Assembly: GCA_041586155.1 (NCBI GenBank)
Contig: JBFHAT010000003.1
Coordinates: 27,115 to 91,114, forward strand
Origin: Acidimicrobiia bacterium
GTDB taxonomy: Bacteria > Actinomycetota > Acidimicrobiia > Spongiisociales > JAENVV01
DNA length: 64,000 nucleotides
Reading direction: 5' to 3'
Under the pieces are notes generated by a model. That model saw only the letters and a program-made list of their open reading frames with translations, made no database searches and was not told the DNA's origin. The position numbers and the translations under genes were made by a program. Shown here piece after piece: positions 2-13,106 of the stretch (within the stretch, counting starts at the first letter, position 1; each line of letters starts with the position of its first letter).

Positions 2-3000
2 GCCTCCGAGGCCGGTGTGTGCCCGGAGGAAGAAGCGCTGGCGATCGACACCGGCCAGCTCGGTCCCGGCGAAGCCGTCCACTTCGACCCGGTGCACGAC
101 CGGCTTGTGTTCGCCGAAGACATCCTCGAGGGCCTCGCTGCCCGCCAGCCCTACGGACAGTGGATCTCCACCGAGACGCTGTACGTGCAAGATCCCTTCG
201 ACGACACCTTCGACACCCGCATCGACTTCGAACGCTTCGCCCGGGTCTTCGGATACACGCCCGAGGATCGCCGCATGGTCCTCCAGCCGATGGCCGAGGG
301 AAAAACCCCGACCGGATCGATGGGCAATGACACGCCGCTGGCAGCGCTGTCGGAGACTCCTCGCCGTCTCAGCCACTACTTCCATCAACTGTTCGCCCAG
401 GTGACGAACCCGCCGATGGATCCCATCAGGGAGAAGAGAGTGATGTCGCTGCGCACGTACCTCGGCAGGAGGGGATCCTTACTCGAAGAAACACCCCAGC
501 AGGCTGCACTGATCGAAGTGTCCTCACCCGTCCTGTCGGGGGCTGAGCTCGACCGAATCGTCCGATCCGGCGACGCGCGCTTCTTCTCCTACTGGATTCC
601 CACCGTCTACCACGCTGAGCTCGGTCCACGCCGGCTCCAAGAACGTCTCGTCGAGATCGTCGACGAGGCGGTGACCGCGGTCAAGGGGGGCGCCACGATC
701 CTCGTGCTCTCCGACCGCGAAGTGGACGCCGAACACGTCGCCATGCCCATGCCGCTGGCCGTGTCGGCCCTGCACCACAGGCTGATCGAAGAGGGCATCA
801 GGCTCGACACGTCCATCGTGTGCGTCTCGGGCGAGACACAAACCGACCACGACGTTGCGGTGCTCCTCGGACTCGGCGCCTCGGCCGTGAACCCGTACCT
901 CGCCATCGAGCTCATACAGCACATGGCGGCCGACGGCACCGTCACCGTTGGGTCGGTCGTCGCTCAAGAGAACTACCGGATGGCACTCCAGAACGGCCTG
1001 CTGAAGATCATGTCGAAGATGGGAATCTGCACACTGAGCTCATACCGGGGGAGCGAACTGTTCGAAGTCGTCGGTCTCGGCGACGACCTCGTCTCCACCG
1101 CATTCCGATTCTGCGCCCGCCGAACCAGCGGCATCGGCTTCGAGACTCTGGCGCAGCAGGGCCTCGACCTGCACGGGCTCTGGGAGGAAGGCGAGGAAGG
1201 GGTCGGCGGCTTCTACAAGTACCGGCGCGGGGGCTCCGTGCACGTCACCAGTCCTTCGGTCGTCCTCGCACTACAGAAAGCCGTCCGGTCGGGCCAGCGA
1301 GCCGAATGGGATGCGTACGTCAAAGCCATCGAAGACCGCCCCGCCTCCCAACTGCGGGACCTGTTGGTGTTCAAGGAGCGGCGGCCCGTGCCCGTCCACG
1401 AAGTCGAGCCCCCCGAGCGCATCATGCGGAGATTTGTCACCGCAGCGATGTCGCTCGGTGCGTTGTCGCGGGAAGCTCACACCGCGTTGGCCGAGGCGAT
1501 GTCCCTCATCGGCGGGCTGTCCAACTCGGGCGAAGGAGGCGAAGATCCAGGCCGCTACGACACGCCCCGCAACTCGGACATCAAACAAGTGGCTTCGGGG
1601 CGCTTCGGAGTGACGCCCGGGTATCTCGCATCAGCCGAGGAATTCCAGATCAAGATGGCACAAGGCTCGAAGCCCGGCGAAGGAGGACAGCTTCCGGGAC
1701 ACAAGGTGACCGACGAGATCGCCTGGCTCCGCCACACCGAACCCGGCGTGTCGCTCATCTCTCCACCACCCCACCACGACATCTATTCGATCGAGGATCT
1801 CGCCCAGCTGATCTACGACCTCAAAGCCTTCAAGCCCACCGCCCGGGTGTCCGTCAAGCTCGTCTCGGAACCCGGTGTGGGGACGATCGCAGTGGGAGTC
1901 GCCAAAGCACAAGCCGACGCGATCACGATCTCCGGCAATGATGGAGGAACCGGAGCGTCGCCGCTGACCTCCATCAAACATGCCGGCTCGCCCTGGGAAC
2001 TCGGACTGGCCGAAGCGCACCAGGTGCTGCTCGCCAACGGCCTCCGCTCGCGCGTCGCCCTCGAAACCGACGGAGGCATGCGCACCGGTCGCGATGTGGT
2101 CGTGGCCGCGCTGCTTGGAGCCGAGCGCTTCGGATTCGGCACCCTTCCCCTCCTCGCCCTCGGCTGCAAGATGGTGCGCCAATGCCACGAGAACACGTGC
2201 CCCGTGGGGATCGCCACCCAACGTGAAGACCTCAGGGCCAAATTCTCCGGAGCCCCCGACCAGATCGTCCAGCTGTTCCGGCTCCTCGCCGAAGAAGTGC
2301 GAACCCACCTGGCTGCGCTGGGAGCCCGCTCCATCGAAGAGATCGTCGGGCGAGCCGACCTCCTCGAACCCGCACAGCCCGACCATCCGATGGCCGGCTC
2401 CCTTGCCGCCGCACTCGTCAGGGCCGAAGGACGCCGCCGGCACCCCGGATACATCAAAGTGGAACGCTCGCCGCTGTCCCATCTGCTCGCGGGCCACGTG
2501 AGAGGTGCCCTCGACGACGGCCGCCGAGTAGACGTCGCCTATCCCATCACCAACGGAGACCGAACGATCGGCGCCACTGTCTCTGGGCTCATCGCCACCC
2601 GCCACGGCGACCTGGGGCTTCCGGCAGACAGCGTCAGAATCCGACTCGCTGGCACCGCGGGGCAGAGCCTCGGCGCCTTCCTCGCCGAAGGCGTGTCCAT
2701 ACACCTCGACGGGCCCGCCAACGACTACGTCGGCAAAGGGATGGGAGGAGGATCCGTCGTCGTCGTACCCGCCCGCCCCAACCCCGAGCGGATCCCCCAA
2801 GCCGCCGGCAACGCCGTTCTCTACGGCGCAACCGGAGGCACCGTGCACCTGGCGGGCCGCGTCGGCCAGCGCTTCGCAGTCCGCAACAGCGGAGCCGTGG
2901 CCGTCGTCGAAGGCATCTCCGACCACGGGTGCGAATACATGACCGGAGGCATCGCCGTGGTGATCGGGCCAGTCGGTAGGAACTTCGCTGCAGGAATGAC

Positions 3001-3292
3001 CGGCGGAACCGCCTACGTGTGGGACCCCGGCGTTCGCCTCAACGCTCTCGTGGCCGAATCAGCACCCTCGATGCAACGACTCTCGGAAGCCGACGAGGCC
3101 ATCGTGAGCGCCCTCCTCGCGTCGCACCTCGAACTCACCGACAGCCCCACCGCTCGCATGATCATCGACGACTGGGATCGGCAGCGACGGCGGTTCTGGG
3201 CAGTCGCCGCCCGAACCAGCGAACGAGTCGACGAACGACCATGGAGAGCGATCGCCGGCGTCGCGGAACAAAGCGGCCACCGAACGCGTTGA
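2..3292 (+). CDS. gltB: glutamate synthase large subunit, C-terminal ~1090 aa (5' end outside window)
   Basis: ORF open to the window edge. The central domain, FMN-binding TIM barrel and C-terminal GXGXG beta-helix domain are recognisable ('GEGGEDP', 'CHENTCPVGIATQ', 'GGTAYVWD'). Confidence 0.9.
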   Translation, partial: ASEAGVCPEEEALAIDTGQLGPGEAVHFDPVHDRLVFAEDILEGLAARQPYGQWISTETLYVQDPFDDTFDTRIDFERFARVFGYTPEDRRMVLQPMAEGKTPTGSMGNDTPLAALSETPRRLSHYFHQLFAQVTNPPMDPIREKRVMSLRTYLGRRGSLLEETPQQAALIEVSSPVLSGAELDRIVRSGDARFFSYWIPTVYHAELGPRRLQERLVEIVDEAVTAVKGGATILVLSDREVDAEHVAMPMPLAVSALHHRLIEEGIRLDTSIVCVSGETQTDHDVAVLLGLGASAVNPYLAIELIQHMAADGTVTVGSVVAQENYRMALQNGLLKIMSKMGICTLSSYRGSELFEVVGLGDDLVSTAFRFCARRTSGIGFETLAQQGLDLHGLWEEGEEGVGGFYKYRRGGSVHVTSPSVVLALQKAVRSGQRAEWDAYVKAIEDRPASQLRDLLVFKERRPVPVHEVEPPERIMRRFVTAAMSLGALSREAHTALAEAMSLIGGLSNSGEGGEDPGRYDTPRNSDIKQVASGRFGVTPGYLASAEEFQIKMAQGSKPGEGGQLPGHKVTDEIAWLRHTEPGVSLISPPPHHDIYSIEDLAQLIYDLKAFKPTARVSVKLVSEPGVGTIAVGVAKAQADAITISGNDGGTGASPLTSIKHAGSPWELGLAEAHQVLLANGLRSRVALETDGGMRTGRDVVVAALLGAERFGFGTLPLLALGCKMVRQCHENTCPVGIATQREDLRAKFSGAPDQIVQLFRLLAEEVRTHLAALGARSIEEIVGRADLLEPAQPDHPMAGSLAAALVRAEGRRRHPGYIKVERSPLSHLLAGHVRGALDDGRRVDVAYPITNGDRTIGATVSGLIATRHGDLGLPADSVRIRLAGTAGQSLGAFLAEGVSIHLDGPANDYVGKGMGGGSVVVVPARPNPERIPQAAGNAVLYGATGGTVHLAGRVGQRFAVRNSGAVAVVEGISDHGCEYMTGGIAVVIGPVGRNFAAGMTGGTAYVWDPGVRLNALVAESAPSMQRLSEADEAIVSALLASHLELTDSPTARMIIDDWDRQRRRFWAVAARTSERVDERPWRAIAGVAEQSGHRTR

Positions 3293-3303
3293 TCAAACCA
3301 TCT

Positions 3304-3496
3304 GGTGCATTGGGGGTAACTTCGGTCTTCCCCACTTCCAACGGTGCCCCCAATGCACCGGCGTGCTCGCTGAAGCGAGCACGTTTGAGAATCCTTCGGA
3401 TTCTCATGCGTGTGTTGGTAGGGGCCGTCTTCTGGTCCGGCGTGTTCGCTGAAGCGAGTGCGTTTGAGAGTCCTTCGGATTCTCATGCGTGTGTTG
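3304..3496 (+). promoter_or_regulatory. structured intergenic element: one 13-bp-stem hairpin plus two 60-nt direct repeats, each folding into two hairpins (candidate cis-regulatory RNA/leader of sufB or gltB terminator module)
   Basis: 13-bp inverted repeat GGTGCATTGGGGG(3304-3316)/CCCCCAATGCACC(3347-3359). Direct repeats 3358-3417 and 3437-3496 each contain CGTGCTCGC-TGAA-GCGAGCACG and GAGAATCC-TTCG-GGATTCTC hairpins. All 4 differences between the copies are transitions that give G·U pairs on the + strand. Confidence 0.5.
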
Positions 3497-3592
3497 ATGG
3501 CGGCCCGAGATCCTCGATCACGCCGTACCGGCTTGTTCTGGTCGGGTTGGGTCGGTGATACGATATGAATTCGAGAACGAAGGTGAAACCTC

Positions 3593-5005
3593 ATGGCGAC
3601 CGTTGACATCGACCTCGGTGCTTATCAGCTCGGTTGGCACGACTCGGAAGAGGATTACGTGTTCAAGCCCCAGAAGGGCTTGAACGAAGACATCATCCGC
3701 GAGATGTCGCGGATCAAGAGCGAACCCGAATGGATGCTCGCGTTCCGGCTCAAGGCCTACCAGCGCTTCCTGCGCAAGCCCATTCCGACGTGGGGTGGTG
3801 GCGGAGCCCTGCAGGAGATCGACTTCGACGACATCTACTACTACGTCAAGCCCACCGACGGTCAAGCCAAGGACTGGGACATGGTGCCCGAGTCCATCAA
3901 GGACACGTACGAGAAGCTCGGCATTCCCGAGGCAGAGCGCAAATACCTCGCCGGCGTCACCGCCCAATACGAATCGGAAGTCGTCTATCACCGGAACCGT
4001 GAAGACCTCGAGGCGCTTGGAGTGCTGTTCTGCGACATTGACACCGCCGTACGCGATTACCCCGAGATCGTCCAGGAATACTTCGGAACCATCATCCCTC
4101 CGAACGACAACAAGTTCGCCGCGCTCAACAGCGCGGTGTGGTCGGGAGGATCCTTCATCTACGTGCCGCCAGGGGTCCACGTCGATCAGCCACTGCAAGC
4201 GTACTTCCGGATCAACGCCCAGAACATGGGCCAGTTCGAGCGCACGCTCATCATCGTCGACGAGGACGCCTTCGTGCATTATGTCGAGGGATGCAGCGCC
4301 CCGGTGTACTCGTCGGACTCGCTTCACTCCGCCGTCGTGGAGATCGTCGTCAAGCGCGGAGGGCGCTGCCGGTACACCACGATCCAGAACTGGTCGAACA
4401 ACGTCTACAACCTCGTCACCAAACGCGCCGCCACCTACGCCAACGCCACAATGGAATGGATCGACGGAAACCTCGGCTCCAAGCTCACCATGAAATACCC
4501 GGCAGTGTGGATGCTCGAACCGGGCGCCCACGGCGAAGTGCTCTCGATCGCATTCGCCGGCGAAGGGCAGCATCAAGATGCCGGCGCCAAGATGGTGCAC
4601 GCCGCGCCCAACACCACCTCCACCATCGTGTCCAAATCGATCAGCAAAGGTGGGGGACGCGCCGGCTACCGAGGCCTCGTACGAGTCGAGCCCGGAGCGG
4701 AGCACGTCAAGTCGTTCGTGCGCTGCGACGCCCTCATCCTCGACGAGAACTCCAGGTCCGACACCTATCCGTACATGGAGATCGAGGAAAACGACGCTGA
4801 GATCGGACACGAAGCGAGCGTCTCTAAAGTCGGCGAGGACCAGCTCTTCTATCTGATGAGTCGCGGCCTTTCCGAAGACCAAGCCACGTCGATGGTCGTC
4901 GCCGGATTCATCGAGCCGATCGTCAAAGAGCTGCCCATGGAGTACGCCGTCGAGATGAACAGGCTCATCGAGCTCAACATGGCGGAAGCCGGCGCAGTCG
5001 GCTGA
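3593..5005 (+). CDS. sufB: Fe-S cluster assembly protein SufB
   Basis: 470 aa. Shows the conserved SufB C-terminal beta-helix region ('[14 protein letters not shown]', '[34 protein letters not shown]', '[11 protein letters not shown]'). Confidence 0.9.
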
Positions 5006-5082: not shown

Positions 5083-5610
5083 TCATCCACGGCGGGTGAA
5101 GCGCCGTCCCAGCCACAGCCACAGCCAGCCCAAGCCGAGGCCGGCGGTCACGTCAGTGATCCAATGGACCCCCAACAGGACCCGCGTTGCCCCGACGACC
5201 GGACCCACGGCATAGGAAGCCGCCCGTACGCCACGAGGCGCGCCGACGGCGGCGGTCACTGCCGGCCAGACCGCCGCGGCCGTTGTCGTATGTCCGCTCG
5301 GAAACGACGAGCCGGCGAAATGAGAATGATGGGGCCCCGATGGCCTCCGGCGGCGAGCGAGCAGCTTGATGCCGTTGTGCAGCAGGTTCTGCCCGGCCAC
5401 GATGACCAGCAGGCGTTGCGTTCCCGCCCAGCCCCCCGTCCTCAGCCGGTTGATGGTGGCAGCCGCCAAACCGGCGACGACCGCGCTCTCGGTCCCACCC
5501 GCCTGGGTGACGGCACGAAGCATCGGGATGTGACGTGCCTCGACGTTCTGCGCCGCCCAAGCGGCCGCTGCGTCGTCGATCTGATCGAGGACCGTCAGCA
5601 CGTTGGTCAC
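5083..5610 (-). CDS. PAP2 superfamily (phosphatidic acid phosphatase type 2-like) membrane phosphatase; start uncertain (GTG/TTG candidates at 5601/5610/5616)
   Basis: PAP2 motifs 'SFPSGHTT' and 'RVLLGVHWITDV' with hydrophobic helices. The longer ORF (to 5814) would overlap the sigma-factor gene, so a downstream alternative start is inferred. Confidence 0.6.
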   Translation of the reverse strand: MTNVLTVLDQIDDAAAAWAAQNVEARHIPMLRAVTQAGGTESAVVAGLAAATINRLRTGGWAGTQRLLVIVAGQNLLHNGIKLLARRRRPSGPHHSHFAGSSFPSGHTTTAAAVWPAVTAAVGAPRGVRAASYAVGPVVGATRVLLGVHWITDVTAGLGLGWLWLWLGRRFTRRG

Positions 5611-5650
5611 TGCCAACGAGGTGGCGCGGCCGACGGTTCGGGCCTGTCGC

Positions 5651-6712
5651 CTACAGCAGGCTCTCCAACTCGACGGCGGAACTCGGATGACGCAACTTGG
5701 CGAGCGCCCGACCCTCGATCTGACGTACCCGCTCACGGGTGAGGTTGAACATCTTCCCAACGTCGGACAACGTCCTTGGATCCGACCCGTCGAGACCGAA
5801 GCGGAGGAGAACAACCTGCTTCTCCATCTCCTCCAGCAGGCCTAGCGCGTCCAAGAGATGCTGGCGCCGCAACACCTCGGCCGCGTGGATGAACGGATCC
5901 GGCATGCGCTCGTCCTCGACGAAGTCCTGAAGCTCGGCGTCACCGTCTTCGCCGACCGGACGATCGAGCGAGACCGTATCCGATGGTGCATTCAGCGCCG
6001 CGTTGACCTTGTCGATGTCGAGGCCGCTGGCGTCGGCGATCTCTGTCCTCGTCGGAGACCTCCGAAGCTCTTCGGCCAGCAGCTGCTCTGTCTCCTGCAC
6101 CGTCCGGACCACATCCACCATGTGGACCGGCAGCCGGATCGTCCTGGCCTGGTTGCCGAGGCCCCGGGTGATCGCCTGCCTGATCCACCACGTTGCGTAC
6201 GTCGAGAACTTGAAACCCTTGCGCCAATCGAACTTCTCGACTGCCCGGATCAAGCCGAGGTTGCCTTCCTGAATCAGGTCGAGAAGATCGAGCCCCCTAC
6301 CCGAATAGCGCTTGGCGATCGAGATGACCAAGCGCAGGTTGGAACGAATGAACGCCATCTTTGCTTCTTCGCCCTGATGGACGAGGCGATACAGCTTGGC
6401 TCGATCGGTGGGGGTGAGCTTCTCGCCCGATTCCAGCTTGGCCTGAGCTCGCCGGCCGCGCTCCATCGAGCGAGCCAACCGCACTTCGTCCTCTGCAGTG
6501 AGCAGGGTGTGCCCCGAGACTCGCTCCAGATAGAGGCCCACCGTGTCTGATACGGATGCCGATTCACGTCGCCGTGTGGCCACTTGCTCCCCTTTTAAAC
6601 TGTCGGTGATCCAACCCGCGACTGGCAACGTAACATCGCTCCGGCACAACGAGCAACGGAAAAACGATGTGGTAGCGGTTCCACCAGTGGATTCCGTGAG
6701 AAATTTTGGCAA
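5651..6712 (-). CDS. RNA polymerase sigma-70 family factor, group 1/2 (SigA/SigB-like)
   Basis: Regions 1.2-4.2 are recognisable: 'DTVGLYLERVS..LLTAEDEVRLA', 'LIRAVEKFDWRKGFKFSTYATWWIRQAITR', 'TIRLPVHMVDVV', C-terminal HTH 'TLSDVGKMFNLTRERVRQIEGRAL'. At 353 aa it lacks a long N-terminal extension. Confidence 0.85.
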   Translation of the reverse strand: MPKFLTESTGGTATTSFFRCSLCRSDVTLPVAGWITDSLKGEQVATRRRESASVSDTVGLYLERVSGHTLLTAEDEVRLARSMERGRRAQAKLESGEKLTPTDRAKLYRLVHQGEEAKMAFIRSNLRLVISIAKRYSGRGLDLLDLIQEGNLGLIRAVEKFDWRKGFKFSTYATWWIRQAITRGLGNQARTIRLPVHMVDVVRTVQETEQLLAEELRRSPTRTEIADASGLDIDKVNAALNAPSDTVSLDRPVGEDGDAELQDFVEDERMPDPFIHAAEVLRRQHLLDALGLLEEMEKQVVLLRFGLDGSDPRTLSDVGKMFNLTRERVRQIEGRALAKLRHPSSAVELESLL

Positions 6713-6754
6713 TACGCCGTCTACCTCTCGCTGCGTGTTCAGAACTCACGAATA

Positions 6755-7480
6755 GTGGGCGAATCGGTCGTTGCGTCGTCGGCTGCCAAGCTGACTCCCG
6801 TGGACCGCCGGATCCGACTGCTGAACGAACGCCTCATTGGATGTCGGCGCTGCCCGAGACTGGTCGAATGGCGGCAGGCTGCAGCGCTCTCGCCACCTGC
6901 CCGGTACCGCGCCGAGCCGTATTGGGCTCGACCCGTACCCGGGTTCGGCGACGAGCGCGGCCCCGTCCTGATCGTGGGCCTCGCTCCGGCCGCCCACGGT
7001 GCCAACCGGACCGGGCGCATGTTCACGGGTGATCGCTCGGGCGATTGGCTCTTCTCGGCGCTGGCGGAAGTGGGGCTCGCCAACCAACCCGAGTCGACCG
7101 ATGTCGGCGATGGCCTGACGCTGGAGGGCGCCTATGTGACGGCGTCGGTCCGATGCGCGCCGCCTCAGAACCGGCCTACTGCGGACGAGCGAGACAACTG
7201 CCGGCCCTGGTTGGAGGAGGAATTCGACCTCATCGACCCCAAGGTGGTTCTGTGTCTCGGCGGATTCGCATTCGACCAGACGCTTCGGCTCCTGGGCGAG
7301 AGAGGAGCACCCTTGCCACGCCCTCGCCCGCGGTTCGGCCACGGCATCGAACTAGAACTCGGTGAGCCGTGGCCGGTGGTAGTCGCCTCGTACCATCCAT
7401 CGCAGCAGAACACCTTCACCGGTCGACTCACCCGCCAAATGACGGTCGAGGTGTTGCGTCAGACGATGCGGCATCGGTAG
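6755..7480 (+). CDS. uracil-DNA glycosylase superfamily protein (family 4/5, UdgB-like)
   Basis: 'GLAPAAHGANRTGRMFTGDRSG' motif-A region, 'CRRCPRL' cluster ligands, 'VLCLGGFAF' and the C-terminal 'HPSQQNT' motif B. Confidence 0.75.
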   Translation: MGESVVASSAAKLTPVDRRIRLLNERLIGCRRCPRLVEWRQAAALSPPARYRAEPYWARPVPGFGDERGPVLIVGLAPAAHGANRTGRMFTGDRSGDWLFSALAEVGLANQPESTDVGDGLTLEGAYVTASVRCAPPQNRPTADERDNCRPWLEEEFDLIDPKVVLCLGGFAFDQTLRLLGERGAPLPRPRPRFGHGIELELGEPWPVVVASYHPSQQNTFTGRLTRQMTVEVLRQTMRHR

Positions 7481-7491
7481 CGTGCCGCGCC

Positions 7492-8667
7492 ATGTCGAAT
7501 CGTCGCCCCGAAACCGATCTCGTGAGGGCCGGGCTGGAGCGGAGCCGCTATCTCGAAACGGCCGAGCCGCTCTACCTCACGTCGGGCTACGTGTACGAAT
7601 CGGCTGCCGAAGCCGAAGCCGCCTTTGCCGGGGAGGTGGACCGGTACATCTACTCCCGATACGGAAACCCAACGGTGGCCATCTTCGAAGAGAGGCTGCG
7701 TTTGCTGGAGGGAGCCGAGGCCTGTCAGGCAACCGGGTCCGGAATGGGTGCCGTGTTCACAGCGATGGCGGCGACGCTGCGGACGGGGGATCGGGTCGTC
7801 GCCGCCCGGGATCTGTTCGGCTCGTGCTACATCGTCCTCGACGAGTTGCTCCCGCGCTGGGGAATCGAGACGGAGTTCGTGGACGGGTCGGACACAGATC
7901 AGTGGGCTGATGCGCTGTCACGGGAGGCCGCACTCGTGTTCTTCGAGACACCATCGAATCCGATGCAGCAGCTGGTGGACATCGAGACCGTCGCCGAGCT
8001 CGCCCATGCCGCCGGCGCGCAGGTCATGGTCGACAACGTCTTTGCAACACCTCTCGGGCAGCAGCCTCTGGCGCTCGGGGCAGACATCGTCGTCCATTCG
8101 GCCACCAAGCACGTCGATGGGCAGGGCAGGGCCCTGGGTGGCGCGATCTGCGCCAGCGAAGAGTTCATCCACGGCGATCTCCGCCCATTCGTACGCCACA
8201 CCGGTCCTGCCATGAGCCCCTTCAACGCTTGGCTACTCGCCAAGTCGCTGGAGACGATGCCCGTGCGGGTGGGAGCGATGGCGGCGGCTGCGTCGGCTCT
8301 TGCCGACTGGCTGTCCCAGCATGACCGAGTCGTCCGCGTGATCTATCCAGGTCACTTCACTCACCCCCAGCACGACTTGGCACGGCGGCAGATGTCGATG
8401 GGTGGGACGGTCGTGACGATCGAACTCGAGGGCGGCAAACCCGAGTCCTTTCGATTCCTCGATGCACTGGAGCTGATCGACATCTCCAACAACCTCGGTG
8501 ATGCGAAATCCCTCGCCACCCACCCGGCTTCGACCACCCACCGCCGGCTCGGCGAGGCGGTGAGAGCAGCAATGGGCATCACTGATGCGATCGTGCGGAT
8601 CTCGGTTGGGCTCGAGCACCTCGCCGACCTACAGGAAGACGTCGACCGGGCTCTCCTTGCTTCATGA
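7492..8667 (+). CDS. metZ: O-succinylhomoserine sulfhydrylase / cystathionine gamma-synthase family PLP enzyme
   Basis: Cys/Met-metabolism PLP-dependent family ('SGYVYESAAEAEAAF', 'YSRYGNPT', 'VVHSATKHVDGQG'). ATG at 7492 chosen over the upstream in-frame ORF start. Confidence 0.8.
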   Translation: MSNRRPETDLVRAGLERSRYLETAEPLYLTSGYVYESAAEAEAAFAGEVDRYIYSRYGNPTVAIFEERLRLLEGAEACQATGSGMGAVFTAMAATLRTGDRVVAARDLFGSCYIVLDELLPRWGIETEFVDGSDTDQWADALSREAALVFFETPSNPMQQLVDIETVAELAHAAGAQVMVDNVFATPLGQQPLALGADIVVHSATKHVDGQGRALGGAICASEEFIHGDLRPFVRHTGPAMSPFNAWLLAKSLETMPVRVGAMAAAASALADWLSQHDRVVRVIYPGHFTHPQHDLARRQMSMGGTVVTIELEGGKPESFRFLDALELIDISNNLGDAKSLATHPASTTHRRLGEAVRAAMGITDAIVRISVGLEHLADLQEDVDRALLAS

Positions 8668-8701
8668 GCGGGTTCGCCCTACCCAGGCGGCCGCCGGTAC
8701 C

Positions 8702-9982
8702 ATGACATCGACTGCGAGGAACGGCCCCGACGTGCTTTCACTGGAACAATCCACCTACGAACGCGTCCTGGACGCGACGCCCGCAGCAGCTCGTCCCGCC
8801 CGTTCAGATGCCATCGCTCGCTTCTCCGCTGCGACCATGCCGACCGGCAAGGAGGAAGCGTGGCGGTATGTCGAGCTGGACTTCGACCTGGCCGAATTTG
8901 GCCTGCCCGAAGCACCCGGTACGCCCTCACCTTCACCGTTCTCGCTCGCAGCCGAGGACCGGGTGGCCTCGGTGAGCCTCGTCGACGGATTCGTCACCGA
9001 TGCCACCTCGGGCAACGGACTCACCATCACCTCACTGCAAGGAGCACCAGACCTCGTGGCCGGACCAAAGGGTGCGGCCGATGTGTTCGCAGCAGCTCAG
9101 GCGGCGCTCGCCCGCGACGGAGTACGCATCGAGGCTGCTCGTGGACACGGCGACGGGCGCCCCGTCGTCGTCGATGTCGCGGCGACTCAGTCCGAGTCGC
9201 TGTCCCTGCCGCAGATCCACATCGAGGTCGCCACCGGCGCCGAGCTGGCCGTCGTCGTGGTGTTTCACTCGGCCGAGCATCGTATGGTGGTCTCGCCGAA
9301 CATCGTCGCCAGCGTGGCCGATGGCGGTCACCTGCGGATGACGACCGTCCAAGCCTGGGGAAGCAAGACGCGTGCGATCGGGTTCCAGCGATACGGCCTC
9401 GGTCGGGATGCCACCTTGCGGCTCGGCGAAATCGGATTGGGTGGAGCGCTGGCGCGACTCGATCTGGGGATCGATCTCGACGGCGATGGCTCGACGTCGG
9501 ACACCACTGGCATCTACTTCGGGGATGGCTCTCAGGTTCTCGACTATCGCGTCGTCGTGAACCATCGGGGGCGGAACACCGCTTCGGACGTTCACCTCAG
9601 AGGGGCGGTCGAGGACGACGCAGAATCGATCTTCACCGGTTTGCTGAAGATCTGGCCGGCCGCCACCAACACGTCGACATTCGAGCAGAACCGCAACCTG
9701 GTCCTCTCCGATGGAGCCAAGGCCCATTCGGTACCCAACCTGGAGATCTTGTGCGACGACGTCGTGTGCGGGCATGGCTCCACCGTTGGACCCTTCGAAT
9801 CTGAGCATCTCTACTACCTGGAGTCACGTGGTCTGGGTCGCGAGCGGGCCGAGCGCCTGCTCCTGCGTGGGTTTTTCGAAGAGGTGATCGGCCGGCTCCC
9901 CGCGCCGCAGCTGGCCGACGCGGTCCGGGAAGCGGTCAACGCCAAGTTCGTTGCCGCCCAACGGGAAGGACGGATTGCATGA
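8702..9982 (+). CDS. sufD: Fe-S cluster assembly protein SufD
   Basis: SufD beta-helix C-terminal region ('NHRGRNTASDVHLRGAV', 'NLEILCDDVVCGHGSTVGPFESEHLYYLESRGL'). ATG at 8702 avoids overlap with metZ. Confidence 0.85.
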   Translation: MTSTARNGPDVLSLEQSTYERVLDATPAAARPARSDAIARFSAATMPTGKEEAWRYVELDFDLAEFGLPEAPGTPSPSPFSLAAEDRVASVSLVDGFVTDATSGNGLTITSLQGAPDLVAGPKGAADVFAAAQAALARDGVRIEAARGHGDGRPVVVDVAATQSESLSLPQIHIEVATGAELAVVVVFHSAEHRMVVSPNIVASVADGGHLRMTTVQAWGSKTRAIGFQRYGLGRDATLRLGEIGLGGALARLDLGIDLDGDGSTSDTTGIYFGDGSQVLDYRVVVNHRGRNTASDVHLRGAVEDDAESIFTGLLKIWPAATNTSTFEQNRNLVLSDGAKAHSVPNLEILCDDVVCGHGSTVGPFESEHLYYLESRGLGRERAERLLLRGFFEEVIGRLPAPQLADAVREAVNAKFVAAQREGRIA

Positions 9983-11087: not shown

Positions 11088-11815
11088 TGGATCTGTCGGT
11101 CCAAGTCTGGGGGGACGGCGACCGAAGGGCTCTCCTCCTCCACGGCATCTCCTCCAATGCCGCCGGATGGTTCCGGGTGGGCGCAACCATGGCCTCTTGG
11201 GGATACCGAGTCGTAGCCCCCGATCTTCGCGGCCACGGCAAGAGCCCCGCTGCCGACTCGTATCGCCTGGAAGATCACGCCGATGACGTTGCCGCCCTGG
11301 GAACTGAATGGGAGGTCGTCCTGGGTCATTCGATGGGGGCCGCAGTAGCGTTGCTGCTGGCCCATGACTCGTTTTGCCGCAGCCTGATCCTCGAAGATCC
11401 GGCGTTGGTGGTGGTCGACTCCGACATGACACGCGACTGGATGCTCGCGCCCTACCGCAATGAGATCTCTGCCCACGCCGTTGCAGCCGACAATCCCACA
11501 TGGCACCCGGAAGATGCCCGTATCAAGGCCGAGGCGCTGCTTCAATCGAGCCCCGAGATGGTAGAACGGACCCTCGTCGACAACCCGAGTTGGAACGTGA
11601 TGAAGGAGGTGCTCGCGGTGGAGGTGCCCACGTTGCTGCTGGTCGCTGATCTCGCCAGTGGAGGGCTCGTTCCCGTGGAGCTCGGCGAGTCGATCGCCGC
11701 CCACAATCCCGCCGTCGTGTATCGCCACATTCCCGGTGCGAGTCACTCGATGCATCGCGACCAGTTCGACCGCACGATGAGAGAGATCGGCTCTTGGCTC
11801 GGCCATGGCGCATGA
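11084..11815 (+). CDS. alpha/beta hydrolase fold protein
   Basis: 'LLLHGISSNAAGW', nucleophile elbow 'GHSMGA', C-terminal His. 4-nt overlap with the upstream gene. Confidence 0.7.
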   Translation: MMDLSVQVWGDGDRRALLLHGISSNAAGWFRVGATMASWGYRVVAPDLRGHGKSPAADSYRLEDHADDVAALGTEWEVVLGHSMGAAVALLLAHDSFCRSLILEDPALVVVDSDMTRDWMLAPYRNEISAHAVAADNPTWHPEDARIKAEALLQSSPEMVERTLVDNPSWNVMKEVLAVEVPTLLLVADLASGGLVPVELGESIAAHNPAVVYRHIPGASHSMHRDQFDRTMREIGSWLGHGA

Positions 11816-12911
11816 TCGAGCCGAAGCCTGGCTGCGGCAGCTGACTGCGCTGCCCACTGCCCCGGGCCACGAAGGAGAGGTGATCCGGTGGGTCCGGTCG
11901 TGGGCGAAGCGCCGACCCGATCTCGAACTGTCCGCCGACCGGGCGGGCAACCTCTTCATCACACAACGCCTGCCGCTTCGGGCGAGGCCGCTGTGGATCA
12001 CCGCGCATCTCGATCACCCGGCTTTTGTCGTGACGGACGTCGGCGGCAGCTCCGTCGAATGGGAGTTTCGGGGTGGGGTGCGGCCCGCCTACTTCGACGA
12101 CGCGTTGATCGAGTTCCATCGAGGGGCGAAGCCTCAGGGAAAGGCCCGAATCGTCGAGCGCAGCTCCGACGCCCGTACCGGCGTCGCTCGGCTGGTGAGA
12201 GGCTCAGCTACACCGTCGACCGGAGACATCGGCCGATGGTGGTTTCGGGAGGATGCCCTTGGTGTGAGACGCGGACGCCTGCGCGCGCATGCCTGCGACG
12301 ACCTCGCAGGCGTGGCAGCGGCGTTGTCGGTGCTCGACGAGCTGCGATCCGGCGCCGAGCATGGGCACATCGGGGTTCTTCTGACGAGGGCCGAGGAGGT
12401 CGGCTTCGTCGGGGCGATTGCAGCAGCGAAGGGCAGCCGGCTGTCTCCGTCGTCGCGGCTGATCTGTCTGGAGATGTCCCGCAGCTTTTCCGACGCTCCC
12501 ATCGGCGGAGGTCCGGTCGTCCGGGTCGGCGACGCCTCCAGCGTCTTCAGCCCGCAGCTCACCAACGCGCTGACCACCGCAGCCGGTGCGTGGTCGAGCG
12601 ACCACGGACGCCCCCACCAGCGCAAGCTCATGGCAGGCGGTTCGTGCGAGGCAACTGCGTTCGCTGCCTACGGATTCGAGGCTGCGTGCCTATGCCTCCC
12701 TCTCGGCAACTACCACAACATGGGCCGGCTCGACGAGGTGGAGAAGGGCCGCACACCGGCCAGGGTGGGCCCCGAGGAGATCGCACTCCGAGACTGGCAT
12801 GGTTTGGTCGATTTCCTCGTCGACCGAGTTGGAGCGTTGGAGCACGTGCAACCGGGTCTGCGGGAGCGGCTCGATGAGCTGTTCGAAGCGGGTCGGCCGA
12901 TCCTCGACTAG
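11805..12911 (+). CDS. M42-family metallo-aminopeptidase (FrvX/glutamyl aminopeptidase-like)
   Basis: 'AHLDHPAF', 'ACDDLAGV', 'TRAEEVGFVGA' metal-ligand motifs typical of M42 peptidases. Confidence 0.6.
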   Translation: MAHDRAEAWLRQLTALPTAPGHEGEVIRWVRSWAKRRPDLELSADRAGNLFITQRLPLRARPLWITAHLDHPAFVVTDVGGSSVEWEFRGGVRPAYFDDALIEFHRGAKPQGKARIVERSSDARTGVARLVRGSATPSTGDIGRWWFREDALGVRRGRLRAHACDDLAGVAAALSVLDELRSGAEHGHIGVLLTRAEEVGFVGAIAAAKGSRLSPSSRLICLEMSRSFSDAPIGGGPVVRVGDASSVFSPQLTNALTTAAGAWSSDHGRPHQRKLMAGGSCEATAFAAYGFEAACLCLPLGNYHNMGRLDEVEKGRTPARVGPEEIALRDWHGLVDFLVDRVGALEHVQPGLRERLDELFEAGRPILD

Positions 12912-13106
12912 CGATGCCAGTTCGTCGATTTCTCTCGAAGCGCTGATTCCGCCCGATTCTCCGATTAGCGATGCCAGGTCGTCGAATCGGCCCGATTCTC
13001 CGACTAGCGATGCCAGGTCGTCGAATCCGCCCGATTCTCCGACTAGCGATGCCAGGTCGTCGAATCCGCCCGATTCTCCGACTAGCGATGCCAGGTCGTC
13101 GAATCG
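12903..13106. repeat. 39-bp tandem repeat x5 (first copy carries a 16-nt insertion) in convergent intergenic space
   Basis: Unit CCCGATTCTCCGACTAGCGATGCCAGGTCGTCGAATCCG with anchors at 12909, 12964, 13003, 13042, 13081. Each unit has a CTAG and junction dyads GAATCGG-C-CCGATTC. Confidence 0.85.

Follow-up and report, generated by a model that had tools for sequence, protein, structure and literature searches.

A Conserved C-Rich-Loop Hairpin and an Apparently Young Tandem Repeat Upstream of sufB in an Acidimicrobiia Bacterium

Introduction

The question raised by this locus is whether the segment between gltB and sufB in an uncultured Acidimicrobiia bacterium (Actinomycetota) specifies a regulatory RNA and, if so, which part of the segment is the conserved one. 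The DNA studied is a stretch of 64,000 nucleotides, here called the window. An initial annotation, made from the letters of the window, proposed that the segment holds a tandem, structured RNA module that is under selection as RNA and could take the role of the SufR repressor. Had a tandem riboregulator replacing SufR held, it would have represented a new mode of Fe-S assembly control. Here, the module and its surroundings are compared with sufB loci of relatives, designated L001, L002, and so on.

The gltB–sufB Intergenic Region

The window opens inside gltB, which encodes the large subunit of glutamate synthase. In the ORF list, this 3′ part of the gene extends from 17 to 3292 on the + strand; the ORF runs off the start of the window, covers the C-terminal two-thirds of the protein with the Pfam domains Glu_syn_central, Glu_synthase, and GXGXG, and stops with the TGA at 3290–3292. 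The gene sufB follows on the same strand, from its ATG at 3593 to 5005. Its product contains the Pfam domains SUFBD_core and SufBD_N and is 87–100% identical to homologues named SufB in MAGs of Acidimicrobiia. The gap is 300 nt long, as annotated. Its GC content is ~57% versus ~65% in the flanking genes, and folding of the whole gap against shuffled sequences gives z-scores of −5.8 on the + strand and −4.5 on the − strand.

The sufB-proximal region, 3556–3586 of the + strand, was read from the sequence and compared with relatives. It contains a possible extended −10 element, TGATACGAT, at 3556–3564, whose promoter function is putative; the sequence GAATTCGAGAA at 3567–3577, which is common to the promoter region of the relatives; and the Shine–Dalgarno sequence of sufB, GAAGGTGA, at 3579–3586. 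A scan of 3150–3700 for the sigma-70 promoter consensus found no site.

The Tandem 79-nt Repeat

A repeat search identified a direct repeat, 3358–3426 and 3437–3505, with a period of 79 nt and 90% identity over 69 nt, bearing out the annotated pair of 60-nt direct repeats lying 79 nt apart. The 42-nt core of the repeat occurs twice in the window and not once in 100 shuffles of the window. Together with the hairpin folds, the search defines unit 1 as 3358–3436 of the + strand, composed of hairpin H1 (3362–3383; 9 bp, UGAA loop, −15.8 kcal/mol), hairpin H2 (3386–3406; 9 bp, UUC loop, −10.8 kcal/mol), and a tail (3407–3436). Unit 2, at 3437–3515 of the same strand, is the last and diverged copy. 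Its H1′ (3441–3462) has three adjacent G·U pairs, its H2′ (3465–3485) has one, and its tail diverges after 3496. Downstream, at 3524–3563 of the + strand, the repeat search found the unit junction once more in a partial, degenerate form (GTACCGGCTTGTTCTGGTCGGG...), with 71–83% identity. This copy resembles a unit tail followed by a unit head, and it probably marks the original duplication boundary. The array of the window, with its 1.9 copies, was not reported by TRF.

Folding confirmed H1 as a 9-bp stem with a UGAA loop. For H2, the hairpin stands but the UUCG-type loop, c(UUCG)g, does not: the G of ‘TTCG’ is paired, so H2 is a 9-bp stem with a UUC triloop or an 8-bp stem with a CUUCG pentaloop. 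The annotation also pointed to a short ORF starting with MRVL in each copy as a potential leader peptide. The ORFs exist, with ATG codons at 3406 and 3485, but no Shine–Dalgarno sequence precedes either of them, and relatives lack them. The 79-nt period, not being divisible by 3, also throws the two out of register, and their frames differ after 4 codons. A leader peptide or attenuation was rejected on these grounds.

The argument for selection on the repeat was drawn from the substitutions between its copies. The first 60 nt of the units differ at four positions, 3366, 3380, 3381, and 3391, and all four differences are transitions, exactly as annotated. It is also correct that each change converts a Watson–Crick pair of copy 1 into a G·U pair when copy 2 is read as the + strand and into an A·C mismatch when it is read as the − strand. 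Copy 2 folds better on the + strand, with −7.5 kcal/mol versus −4.1 on the − strand for H1 and −10.8 versus −6.9 kcal/mol for H2. However, a transition within a stem has a probability of one in two of yielding G·U on a given strand. For four events, the one-sided p is 1/16, and p for either strand is 1/8; taking the adjacent CA>TG change as one event raises these values to 1/8 and 1/4, respectively. The description of these substitutions as a covariation-type signal of selection therefore does not hold up, as three to four events with p of about 0.06–0.25 are within chance. The strand-biased pairing of the four substitutions is compatible with some selection on RNA hairpins and is no proof of it. 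With its three adjacent G·U pairs, H1′ is about half as stable as H1, a change suggestive of decay more than of upkeep.

The only other carrier of the unit found is L005, a 3.9-kb contig of MAG GCA_041564755.1, whose SufB and neighboring sigma factor are both 100% identical to those of the window. The contig starts inside the array, with a partial unit followed by a full intermediate unit and then by a unit identical to the last unit of the window. The intermediate unit has T at the position of 3366, CA at 3380/81, and G at 3391, and it adds no independent event to the G·U pattern. TRF reports a period of 79 nt and 2.3 copies with 98% matches for this contig. The head-to-tail arrangement with a 79-nt period is therefore found in both the window and L005, and the partial, intermediate, and last units of L005 indicate at least three units there versus two in the window. 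Thus, the copy number differs within the species, as in a VNTR, although a collapse of the array during one of the two assemblies could in principle account for the difference. Further conspecific assemblies were sought by exact look-up of SufB and of the neighboring sigma factor, and these look-ups returned only the one conspecific contig of 3.9 kb. The listed members of the SufB 90% cluster are just 85–90% identical.

The unit is missing from the nearest relatives. BLAST found none in L001 (SufB 94% identical to that of the window), in L002/3 and L006 (93%), or in L004 and L007 (91–92%), and no unit-like sequence was visible on reading the sufB-upstream regions of the other loci. The closest lineages keep gltB, sometimes a small membrane-protein ORF, and then sufB. 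The initial annotation had named a lack of conservation in related genomes as an outcome that would speak against its proposal, and the relatives indeed lack the module. The tandem module does not show the combination of conservation and covariation in front of the same gene that marks a conserved leader or riboswitch. Nor did the 60-nt unit match an Rfam family (Rfam 15 at the gathering threshold, whole window); at E ≤ 10, the segment 3200–3700 gave chance matches only, none overlapping the module.

The spacers of several loci hold repeats of their own. In L004, there are unrelated repeats of 44 nt (three copies), 139 nt (three copies), and 10 nt (8.5 copies). The L004, L007, and L170 spacers contain 44-nt and 139-nt arrays around GGGGGGACGACCCCCC, plus a CCTCCGCCTT simple repeat. 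The L006 spacer has two CCGTTTCC(G/A)CAAACGG hairpins, and that of L105 has a 46-nt perfect palindrome. The window contains one other intergenic tandem array, unrelated to the unit, of 39 nt in 4.1 copies at 12948–13105; such expansions therefore occur elsewhere in the source genome.

The sequences of the units also recall a REP- or MITE-like dispersed palindromic element that landed in the gap and was then duplicated. The units lie between genes, downstream of a long one, and each has two perfect 9-bp palindromes; in L005 and L007, the contigs are broken within the gltB–sufB intergenic region, and a related lineage has a different GC-rich palindromic repeat at the same site. However, not even a low-stringency search detected a second site of the unit in the 64-kb window. 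An exact-pattern scan with the 23-nt unit core came up empty in 185,579 species genomes, among which the source species is seemingly not included, as well as in 241 M metagenome records and in IMG/VR, and the 158-nt module had no blastn match in plasmids. There are no terminal inverted repeats and no target-site duplication, the only inverted repeats being the internal hairpins, and a tandem array alone explains a contig break. We consider a REP- or MITE-like origin very unlikely, although dispersed copies of the unit may lie outside the 64 kb. Instead, we read the tandem module as a young, species-specific, and copy-number-variable duplication in a fast-evolving spacer.

Hairpin 0 Is the Conserved Element

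Upstream of the repeat lies a hairpin, hairpin 0, at 3304–3359 of the + strand, delimited by folding and covariation. The 13-bp-stem hairpin of the initial annotation was confirmed: the core stem, 3304–3316 paired with 3347–3359, is perfect, and the loop is ~30 nt long. The stem can be extended to about 20 pairs over 3299–3365, with a ΔG of −34.4 kcal/mol and a z-score of −4.9. The loop carries a conserved C-rich motif, GGUCUUCCCCACUUCC, at 3324–3339.

Homologues were found by searching the fetched sufB loci with the loop sequence and then with a covariance model. This gave 14 instances of hairpin 0 at sufB loci of Acidimicrobiia, 13 of them independent (the window, L001, L002/3, L014, L016, L019, L093, L094, L100–L103, L105, and L106). 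The 14 hairpins have stems of 18–29 bp, ΔG values of −33 to −45 kcal/mol, and loops of 19–30 nt. The stem sequences are wholly different between sub-lineages, as illustrated by GGUGCAUUGGGGG, CGCUGGGGUCGC, GAUCCGCCGGGGCGG, and GGCGCCGGACACGG, while the loop is nearly invariant and reads (C)GGUCUUCCCC(C)(C)ACU(C/U)CC(C)AC. In the 13-pair core, 91.6% of the cells are paired, and 12 of the 13 pairs show compensatory changes involving both sides. As a control, sliding the partner strand by 1–3 columns reduces the pairing to 38–49%, and none of 500 column shuffles reached the observed values on any of five measures. Compensatory changes thus recur in independent lineages, as expected of a conserved structured RNA. 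Across the 14 hairpins, G·U pairs number 20 and A·C only 1; the selected structure is therefore RNA, in the sense that places the C-rich sequence in the loop.

The covariance model, R1, scores the hairpin of the window at 58.5 bits, as its sole match in the 64 kb, and it found nothing else in about 950 kb of other loci. Four additional relatives (L169–L172) have no instance of hairpin 0. Rfam 15 has no family for hairpin 0 of the window, and a search of the loci of ten relatives at E ≤ 5 found nothing credible on the hairpin, the best being Pxr at 24 bits versus a threshold of 80.

The genes upstream of hairpin 0 vary. In the window, L001, L002, L019, and L102, gltB lies upstream; in L014, L016, and L105, the neighbor is a ~400-aa ORF ending in ...PWCxExF, which we take to encode a putative Eis-like acetyltransferase; and in L094, L100, and L101, it is an NmrA-like gene transcribed divergently. 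sufB, on the other hand, always adjoins the hairpin. This arrangement bears on the suggestion that hairpin 0, H1, and H2 are simply a multi-hairpin terminator of gltB. The first of the GC-rich, stable stems does begin 12 nt downstream of the gltB stop codon, and many predicted actinobacterial terminators have no U-tract. Against this, hairpin 0 stays with sufB where the gene upstream is a different or even a divergent one, which argues that it is not a gltB terminator, and a terminator has no need of a conserved loop or of the promoter-like box that hairpin 0 possesses (see below). Further, a terminator scan of 3150–3700 found no terminator-like site and no hairpin with a following T-run; H1 is followed by UUUG only, which falls short of the GC-rich hairpin plus U-tract of an intrinsic terminator. 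That the array and hairpin 0 are only a terminator is quite unlikely, although H1 and H2 could still act as barriers, and this activity is part of the explanation that we favor.

Two other arrangements concern the fate of the hairpin-0 RNA. In L019, the whole promoter–hairpin module has the opposite orientation and faces away from sufB; this speaks against a role purely as a leader and favors an independent small RNA. A T-run like that of an intrinsic terminator follows the stem in two to three of the 14 instances (L093, L094, and, weakly, L100) and is absent from the others, so that a simple terminated small RNA is not to be expected in every lineage. Pairing in cis of the C-rich loop with the Shine–Dalgarno sequence of sufB was also considered, by eye, for the 14 loci and was rejected, as the complementarity is short and inconsistent; in the window, the CUUCC of the loop does not match the GAAGGUGA Shine–Dalgarno sequence. 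In sum, hairpin 0 is a conserved and probably stress-induced RNA element lacking a curated family, its conservation being well supported.

A Promoter-Like Box and the Control of sufB

A box resembling the promoters of ECF sigma factors of the SigH/SigR type, GGAACA-16 nt-CGTTGA, is found at 3265–3292 of the + strand. The −35 sequence GGAACA is at 3265–3270, and CGTTGA, at 3287–3292, overlaps the gltB stop codon. Hairpin 0 of the window begins ~12–13 nt after the box and the stop codon. All 14 loci have the sequence G(G/C)A(A/T)(C/T)N, exactly 16 nt, and (C/G/T)GTT before hairpin 0, and the distance from the box to the stem is 12–18 nt in 13 of them and 62 nt in L019. The background frequency of a strict pattern (GGAA[ACT], 16–19 nt, [CG]GTT), measured in the loci, is 0.076 per kb per strand. 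Given this low background, finding the box in all loci, at a set distance, is far beyond chance. When aligned pairwise, the window and L001 are highly similar over the stretch that runs from the −35 box to the end of hairpin 0, beyond which the similarity collapses.

The published consensus sequences are (G/T)GGAA(C/T)A-16 nt-(C/G)GTT for SigH of M. tuberculosis, GGGAAT(G/C)-16 nt-(C/G)GTTG for SigR of S. coelicolor, and GGAA(T/C) with GTT and a 16–19-nt spacer for SigH of C. glutamicum (PMC3489674, PMC6338062). The box matches these SigH/SigR promoters of Mycobacterium, Streptomyces, and Corynebacterium in its −35 GGAA(C/T)A, its 16-nt spacer, and its (C/G)GTT(G). The SigH/SigR-type promoter sequence is thus present in the window and in the 14 loci, and the assignment of the box to this type is a putative one made by consensus, GGAAC...CGTT being common to several ECF groups. 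A crude motif scan for an ECF sigma gene found none in the 64-kb window.

From the position of the box, transcription would start at about 3296–3299, and a start there would place hairpin 0 at the very 5′ end of the RNA. The proposal of the initial annotation that a structured RNA is made from the + strand before sufB is therefore very probably correct, considering the box, the covarying hairpin 0, and the predicted start just upstream of 3300. The tandem module, however, is not the conserved part of that RNA.

Most relatives have a palindromic, operator-like site, CACTAYC-N2-4-GATAGTG, at a TACAAT −10 sequence before sufB. This site points to a protein repressor encoded elsewhere, and the idea that an RNA replaces SufR finds no support. 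The H1/H2 palindromes themselves might be imagined to serve as an array of DNA operators, bound by a transcription factor, ahead of sufB, since they are perfect 9-bp inverted repeats with 3–4-bp centers that recur at a constant interval of 79 bp in front of a regulated gene. Yet the operator-like site shared by the relatives has a different sequence and lies beside the −10 box, and H1 and H2 are not conserved in any relative. Their GC-richness and very short centers are typical of RNA hairpins, and the substitutions break the dyad symmetry of the DNA while keeping the RNA pairing on one strand. An operator function for H1 and H2 is extremely unlikely.

The window and L001 are without a clean TACAAT-plus-palindrome arrangement, and the window keeps only the right part of the palindrome, GATACGATATGAATTCGAGAA. 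In the lineage of the window, the long transcript running through the repeats may therefore matter more for sufB than is assumed here. Mainly because of this possibly greater role of the long transcript in the lineage of the window, the repeat is not dismissed entirely. This brings us back to the proposal that the 60-nt units are a selected cis-regulatory RNA that senses iron or oxidative stress or binds a factor, replaces SufR, and controls sufB. Besides the missing clean operator, the probable location of the units within a transcript from the ECF-type promoter would fit such a role, as would the four differences that keep pairing on the + strand as G·U and the better folding of copy 2 on that strand. 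But units serving this purpose would hardly be missing from every other lineage examined, including the nearest, with its 94% identical SufB, or vary in number within the species; the substitution events are too few, Rfam offers no match, and the weakened H1′ resembles decay. We regard a cis-regulatory role of this kind as very improbable, and we retain the reading of the units as a young duplication.

In sister clades lacking the hairpin, a similar ECF-like box, GGAAAT-17 nt-CCGTT, occurs 60–72 nt before the sufB start, where it overlaps the TACAAT −10 sequence and a CACTAYC-GG-GATAGTG palindrome. To judge from these sequences, sufB in this group seems to be served by two promoters, a housekeeping one under a repressor and another used by a stress sigma factor, and this dual arrangement favors read-through from the hairpin promoter into sufB. 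It would follow more generally that sufB in Acidimicrobiia probably has a stress-sigma promoter besides a repressor-controlled housekeeping one.

Proposed Mechanism

We consider it reasonably likely that the locus is composed of an old module, the ECF-type promoter with hairpin 0, to which a young 79-nt duplication without a dedicated riboregulator role has been added. SUF is generally needed under oxidative stress. We propose that thiol or oxidative stress would activate the ECF-type promoter, a suggestion that fits both the general need for SUF and the control of sufR by SigH in C. glutamicum (PMC3489674). The resulting RNA would begin with hairpin 0, whose exposed C-rich loop would be the conserved working part. 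By analogy to GsrN and 6C RNA, discussed below, the loop may pair with G-rich sequences or bind a protein. Two fates of the RNA can be envisioned. It may end soon after hairpin 0, giving a small RNA, or it may run on into sufB as a long, stress-induced leader.

Each 79-nt unit would add two stable hairpins to any transcript crossing the gap. Most likely, these hairpins would be unspecific barriers to read-through and to 3′ exonucleases, helping to separate the gltB and hairpin-0 transcripts from sufB, and their copy number would drift freely. The slight strand bias in the conservation of these hairpins agrees with such a barrier role and gives no evidence for a dedicated function.

It is tempting to go further and to propose that hairpin 0 founds an undescribed class of SigH/SigR-dependent, C-rich-loop RNAs that serve both as small RNAs and as the 5′ end of sufB transcripts, with the number of 79-nt units setting the level of read-through into sufB. 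We think this extended proposal unlikely. If it were true, changes in copy number would make the stress induction of an essential gene heritable and tunable across strains, and RNAs of the hairpin-0 class would link thiol-oxidative stress with the assembly of Fe-S clusters in Acidimicrobiia.

Comparison with Known Systems

H1 and H2 resemble REP/BIME elements, which are likewise palindromes that form stable hairpins downstream of a gene and at times occur in tandem. REP/BIME palindromes can act as stabilizers of mRNA 3′ ends, and REPs are defined by many dispersed copies. In contrast, no copies of the unit were found beyond the gltB–sufB locus. There is also a likeness to a minisatellite or VNTR: the 79-nt units are arranged head to tail and differ in number, the unit at the edge is more diverged, the array is absent from sister lineages, and short-read contigs break at it. 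Unlike in a plain VNTR, each unit consists of two strong hairpins and lies inside a probable stress-induced transcript. For VNTR-type repeats, no function is known or required.

ANTAR targets are dual stem-loops with hexanucleotide loops having A1 and G4, and Streptomyces has a predicted one in front of sufR (PMC8164766). H1 and H2 are similarly adjacent hairpins with a short linker before a suf gene in an actinobacterium. An ANTAR target was rejected on loop size, H1 having a UGAA tetraloop and H2 a UUC triloop, and on the absence of an Rfam match.

The 6C RNA has two loops with at least six C each in a structure of ~80 nt and is SigA/SigB-dependent in C. glutamicum (PMC5014011). Hairpin 0 shares with it an actinobacterial host and runs of cytosines in a hairpin loop. 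Identity with 6C RNA was rejected, since hairpin 0 is a single hairpin with a loop of 19–30 nt and has no Rfam match.

Another parallel is GsrN of Caulobacter, a small RNA that depends on the ECF sigma factor sigma-T and has a conserved 5′ C-rich loop that binds G-tracts, for example in the katG leader (PMC5869019). Like GsrN, hairpin 0 has an ECF-type promoter and would be a 5′-terminal stem-loop; its C-rich loop is the most conserved part, and it is tied to oxidative-stress physiology. Unlike GsrN, to which it has no sequence homology, hairpin 0 belongs to another phylum and another sigma group and lies directly before sufB, where it may be a leader. We found no description of a regulatory RNA for the class Acidimicrobiia, and hairpin 0 is a testable candidate for RNA-level control of SUF under oxidative stress. 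By analogy, hairpin 0, an element absent from Rfam 15, would belong with a known kind, namely the stress-sigma-dependent RNAs with C-rich loops.

Repeats and hairpins

Repeat expansion appears to have a hotspot in the intergenic region upstream of sufB. In the L004-type lineage (L-numbers denote sufB loci of related Acidimicrobiia, each with its own local coordinates), whose SufB is 91–92% identical to that of the window, large tandem arrays of 44 nt (three copies) and 139 nt (three copies) lie directly 5′ of sufB, occupying the same place as the window's repeat. They are found at 3052–3937 of L004, where they are downstream of gltB, as well as at 1–260 of L007 and about 575–860 of L170. The core of both array types is a GGGGGGACGACCCCCC hairpin, and a simple repeat, CCTCCGCCTT, present in 8.5 copies, accompanies them. 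A perfect 46-nt palindrome in L105, TTCTGGCGTCCAAACGAGCAACATGTTGCTCGTTTGGACGCCAGAA (about 1830–1876), located 3′ of the conserved covarying hairpin 0, is one more lineage-specific hairpin of the variable spacer.

The window holds another tandem array, unrelated to the module before sufB. This intergenic repeat, at 12948–13105, was reported by TRF as 4.1 copies of a 39-nt unit, TCCGCCCGATTCTCCGACTAGCGATGCCAGGTCGTCGAA, with 97% identity; an extra, more diverged copy sits immediately 5′ of it, across the stop codon of the ORF at 11805–12911.

In L019, the promoter and hairpin 0 module is inverted as a whole (2233–2385), with predicted transcription directed toward the gltB 3′ end, opposite to sufB, and with about 45 additional nt between the promoter box and the stem.

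Gene neighborhood

The nearest relatives carry a small hydrophobic ORF of 129–141 amino acids between gltB and sufB (L001 3322–3747, L002 2673–3089, and L006 3472–3861), which has no Pfam match and is absent from the window. In two relatives, an AHSA1-domain gene and a 105-residue ArsR-family HTH gene directly 5′ of sufB (L169 604–1298 and L171 573–1267) could be a local regulator.

The window's suf genes are split (5083–9982), four genes separating sufB from a sufD-like gene (8585–9982), as follows: a PAP2 gene (5083–5610, minus strand), a full-length sigma-70-family gene (5651–6628, minus strand), a uracil-DNA glycosylase (6755–7480), and a Cys/Met PLP enzyme (7369–8667). In relatives, a Rieske protein is part of the downstream suf cluster.

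Operator-like palindrome and ECF-like box

Most relatives have a palindrome, CACTA(T/C)C-N2-4-GATAGTG, upstream of sufB and immediately 3′ of a TACAAT −10 box. It is at about 2455–2480 in both L016 and L019, and at about −95 to −65 relative to sufB in L009, L010, L018, and L090. A degenerate form is at window 3556–3580, the window and L001 retaining the right half alone. The palindrome is likely a repressor operator. In clades without hairpin 0, the sequence GGAAAT-17 nt-(C)CGTT forms an ECF-like box immediately upstream of sufB, 60–72 nt 5′ of its start in L009, L010, L011, L018, L090, L091, and L099, and it overlaps the putative housekeeping promoter and putative operator. The relatives' palindrome is unlike the M. 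tuberculosis SufR site, ACACT-N5-TGTGA.
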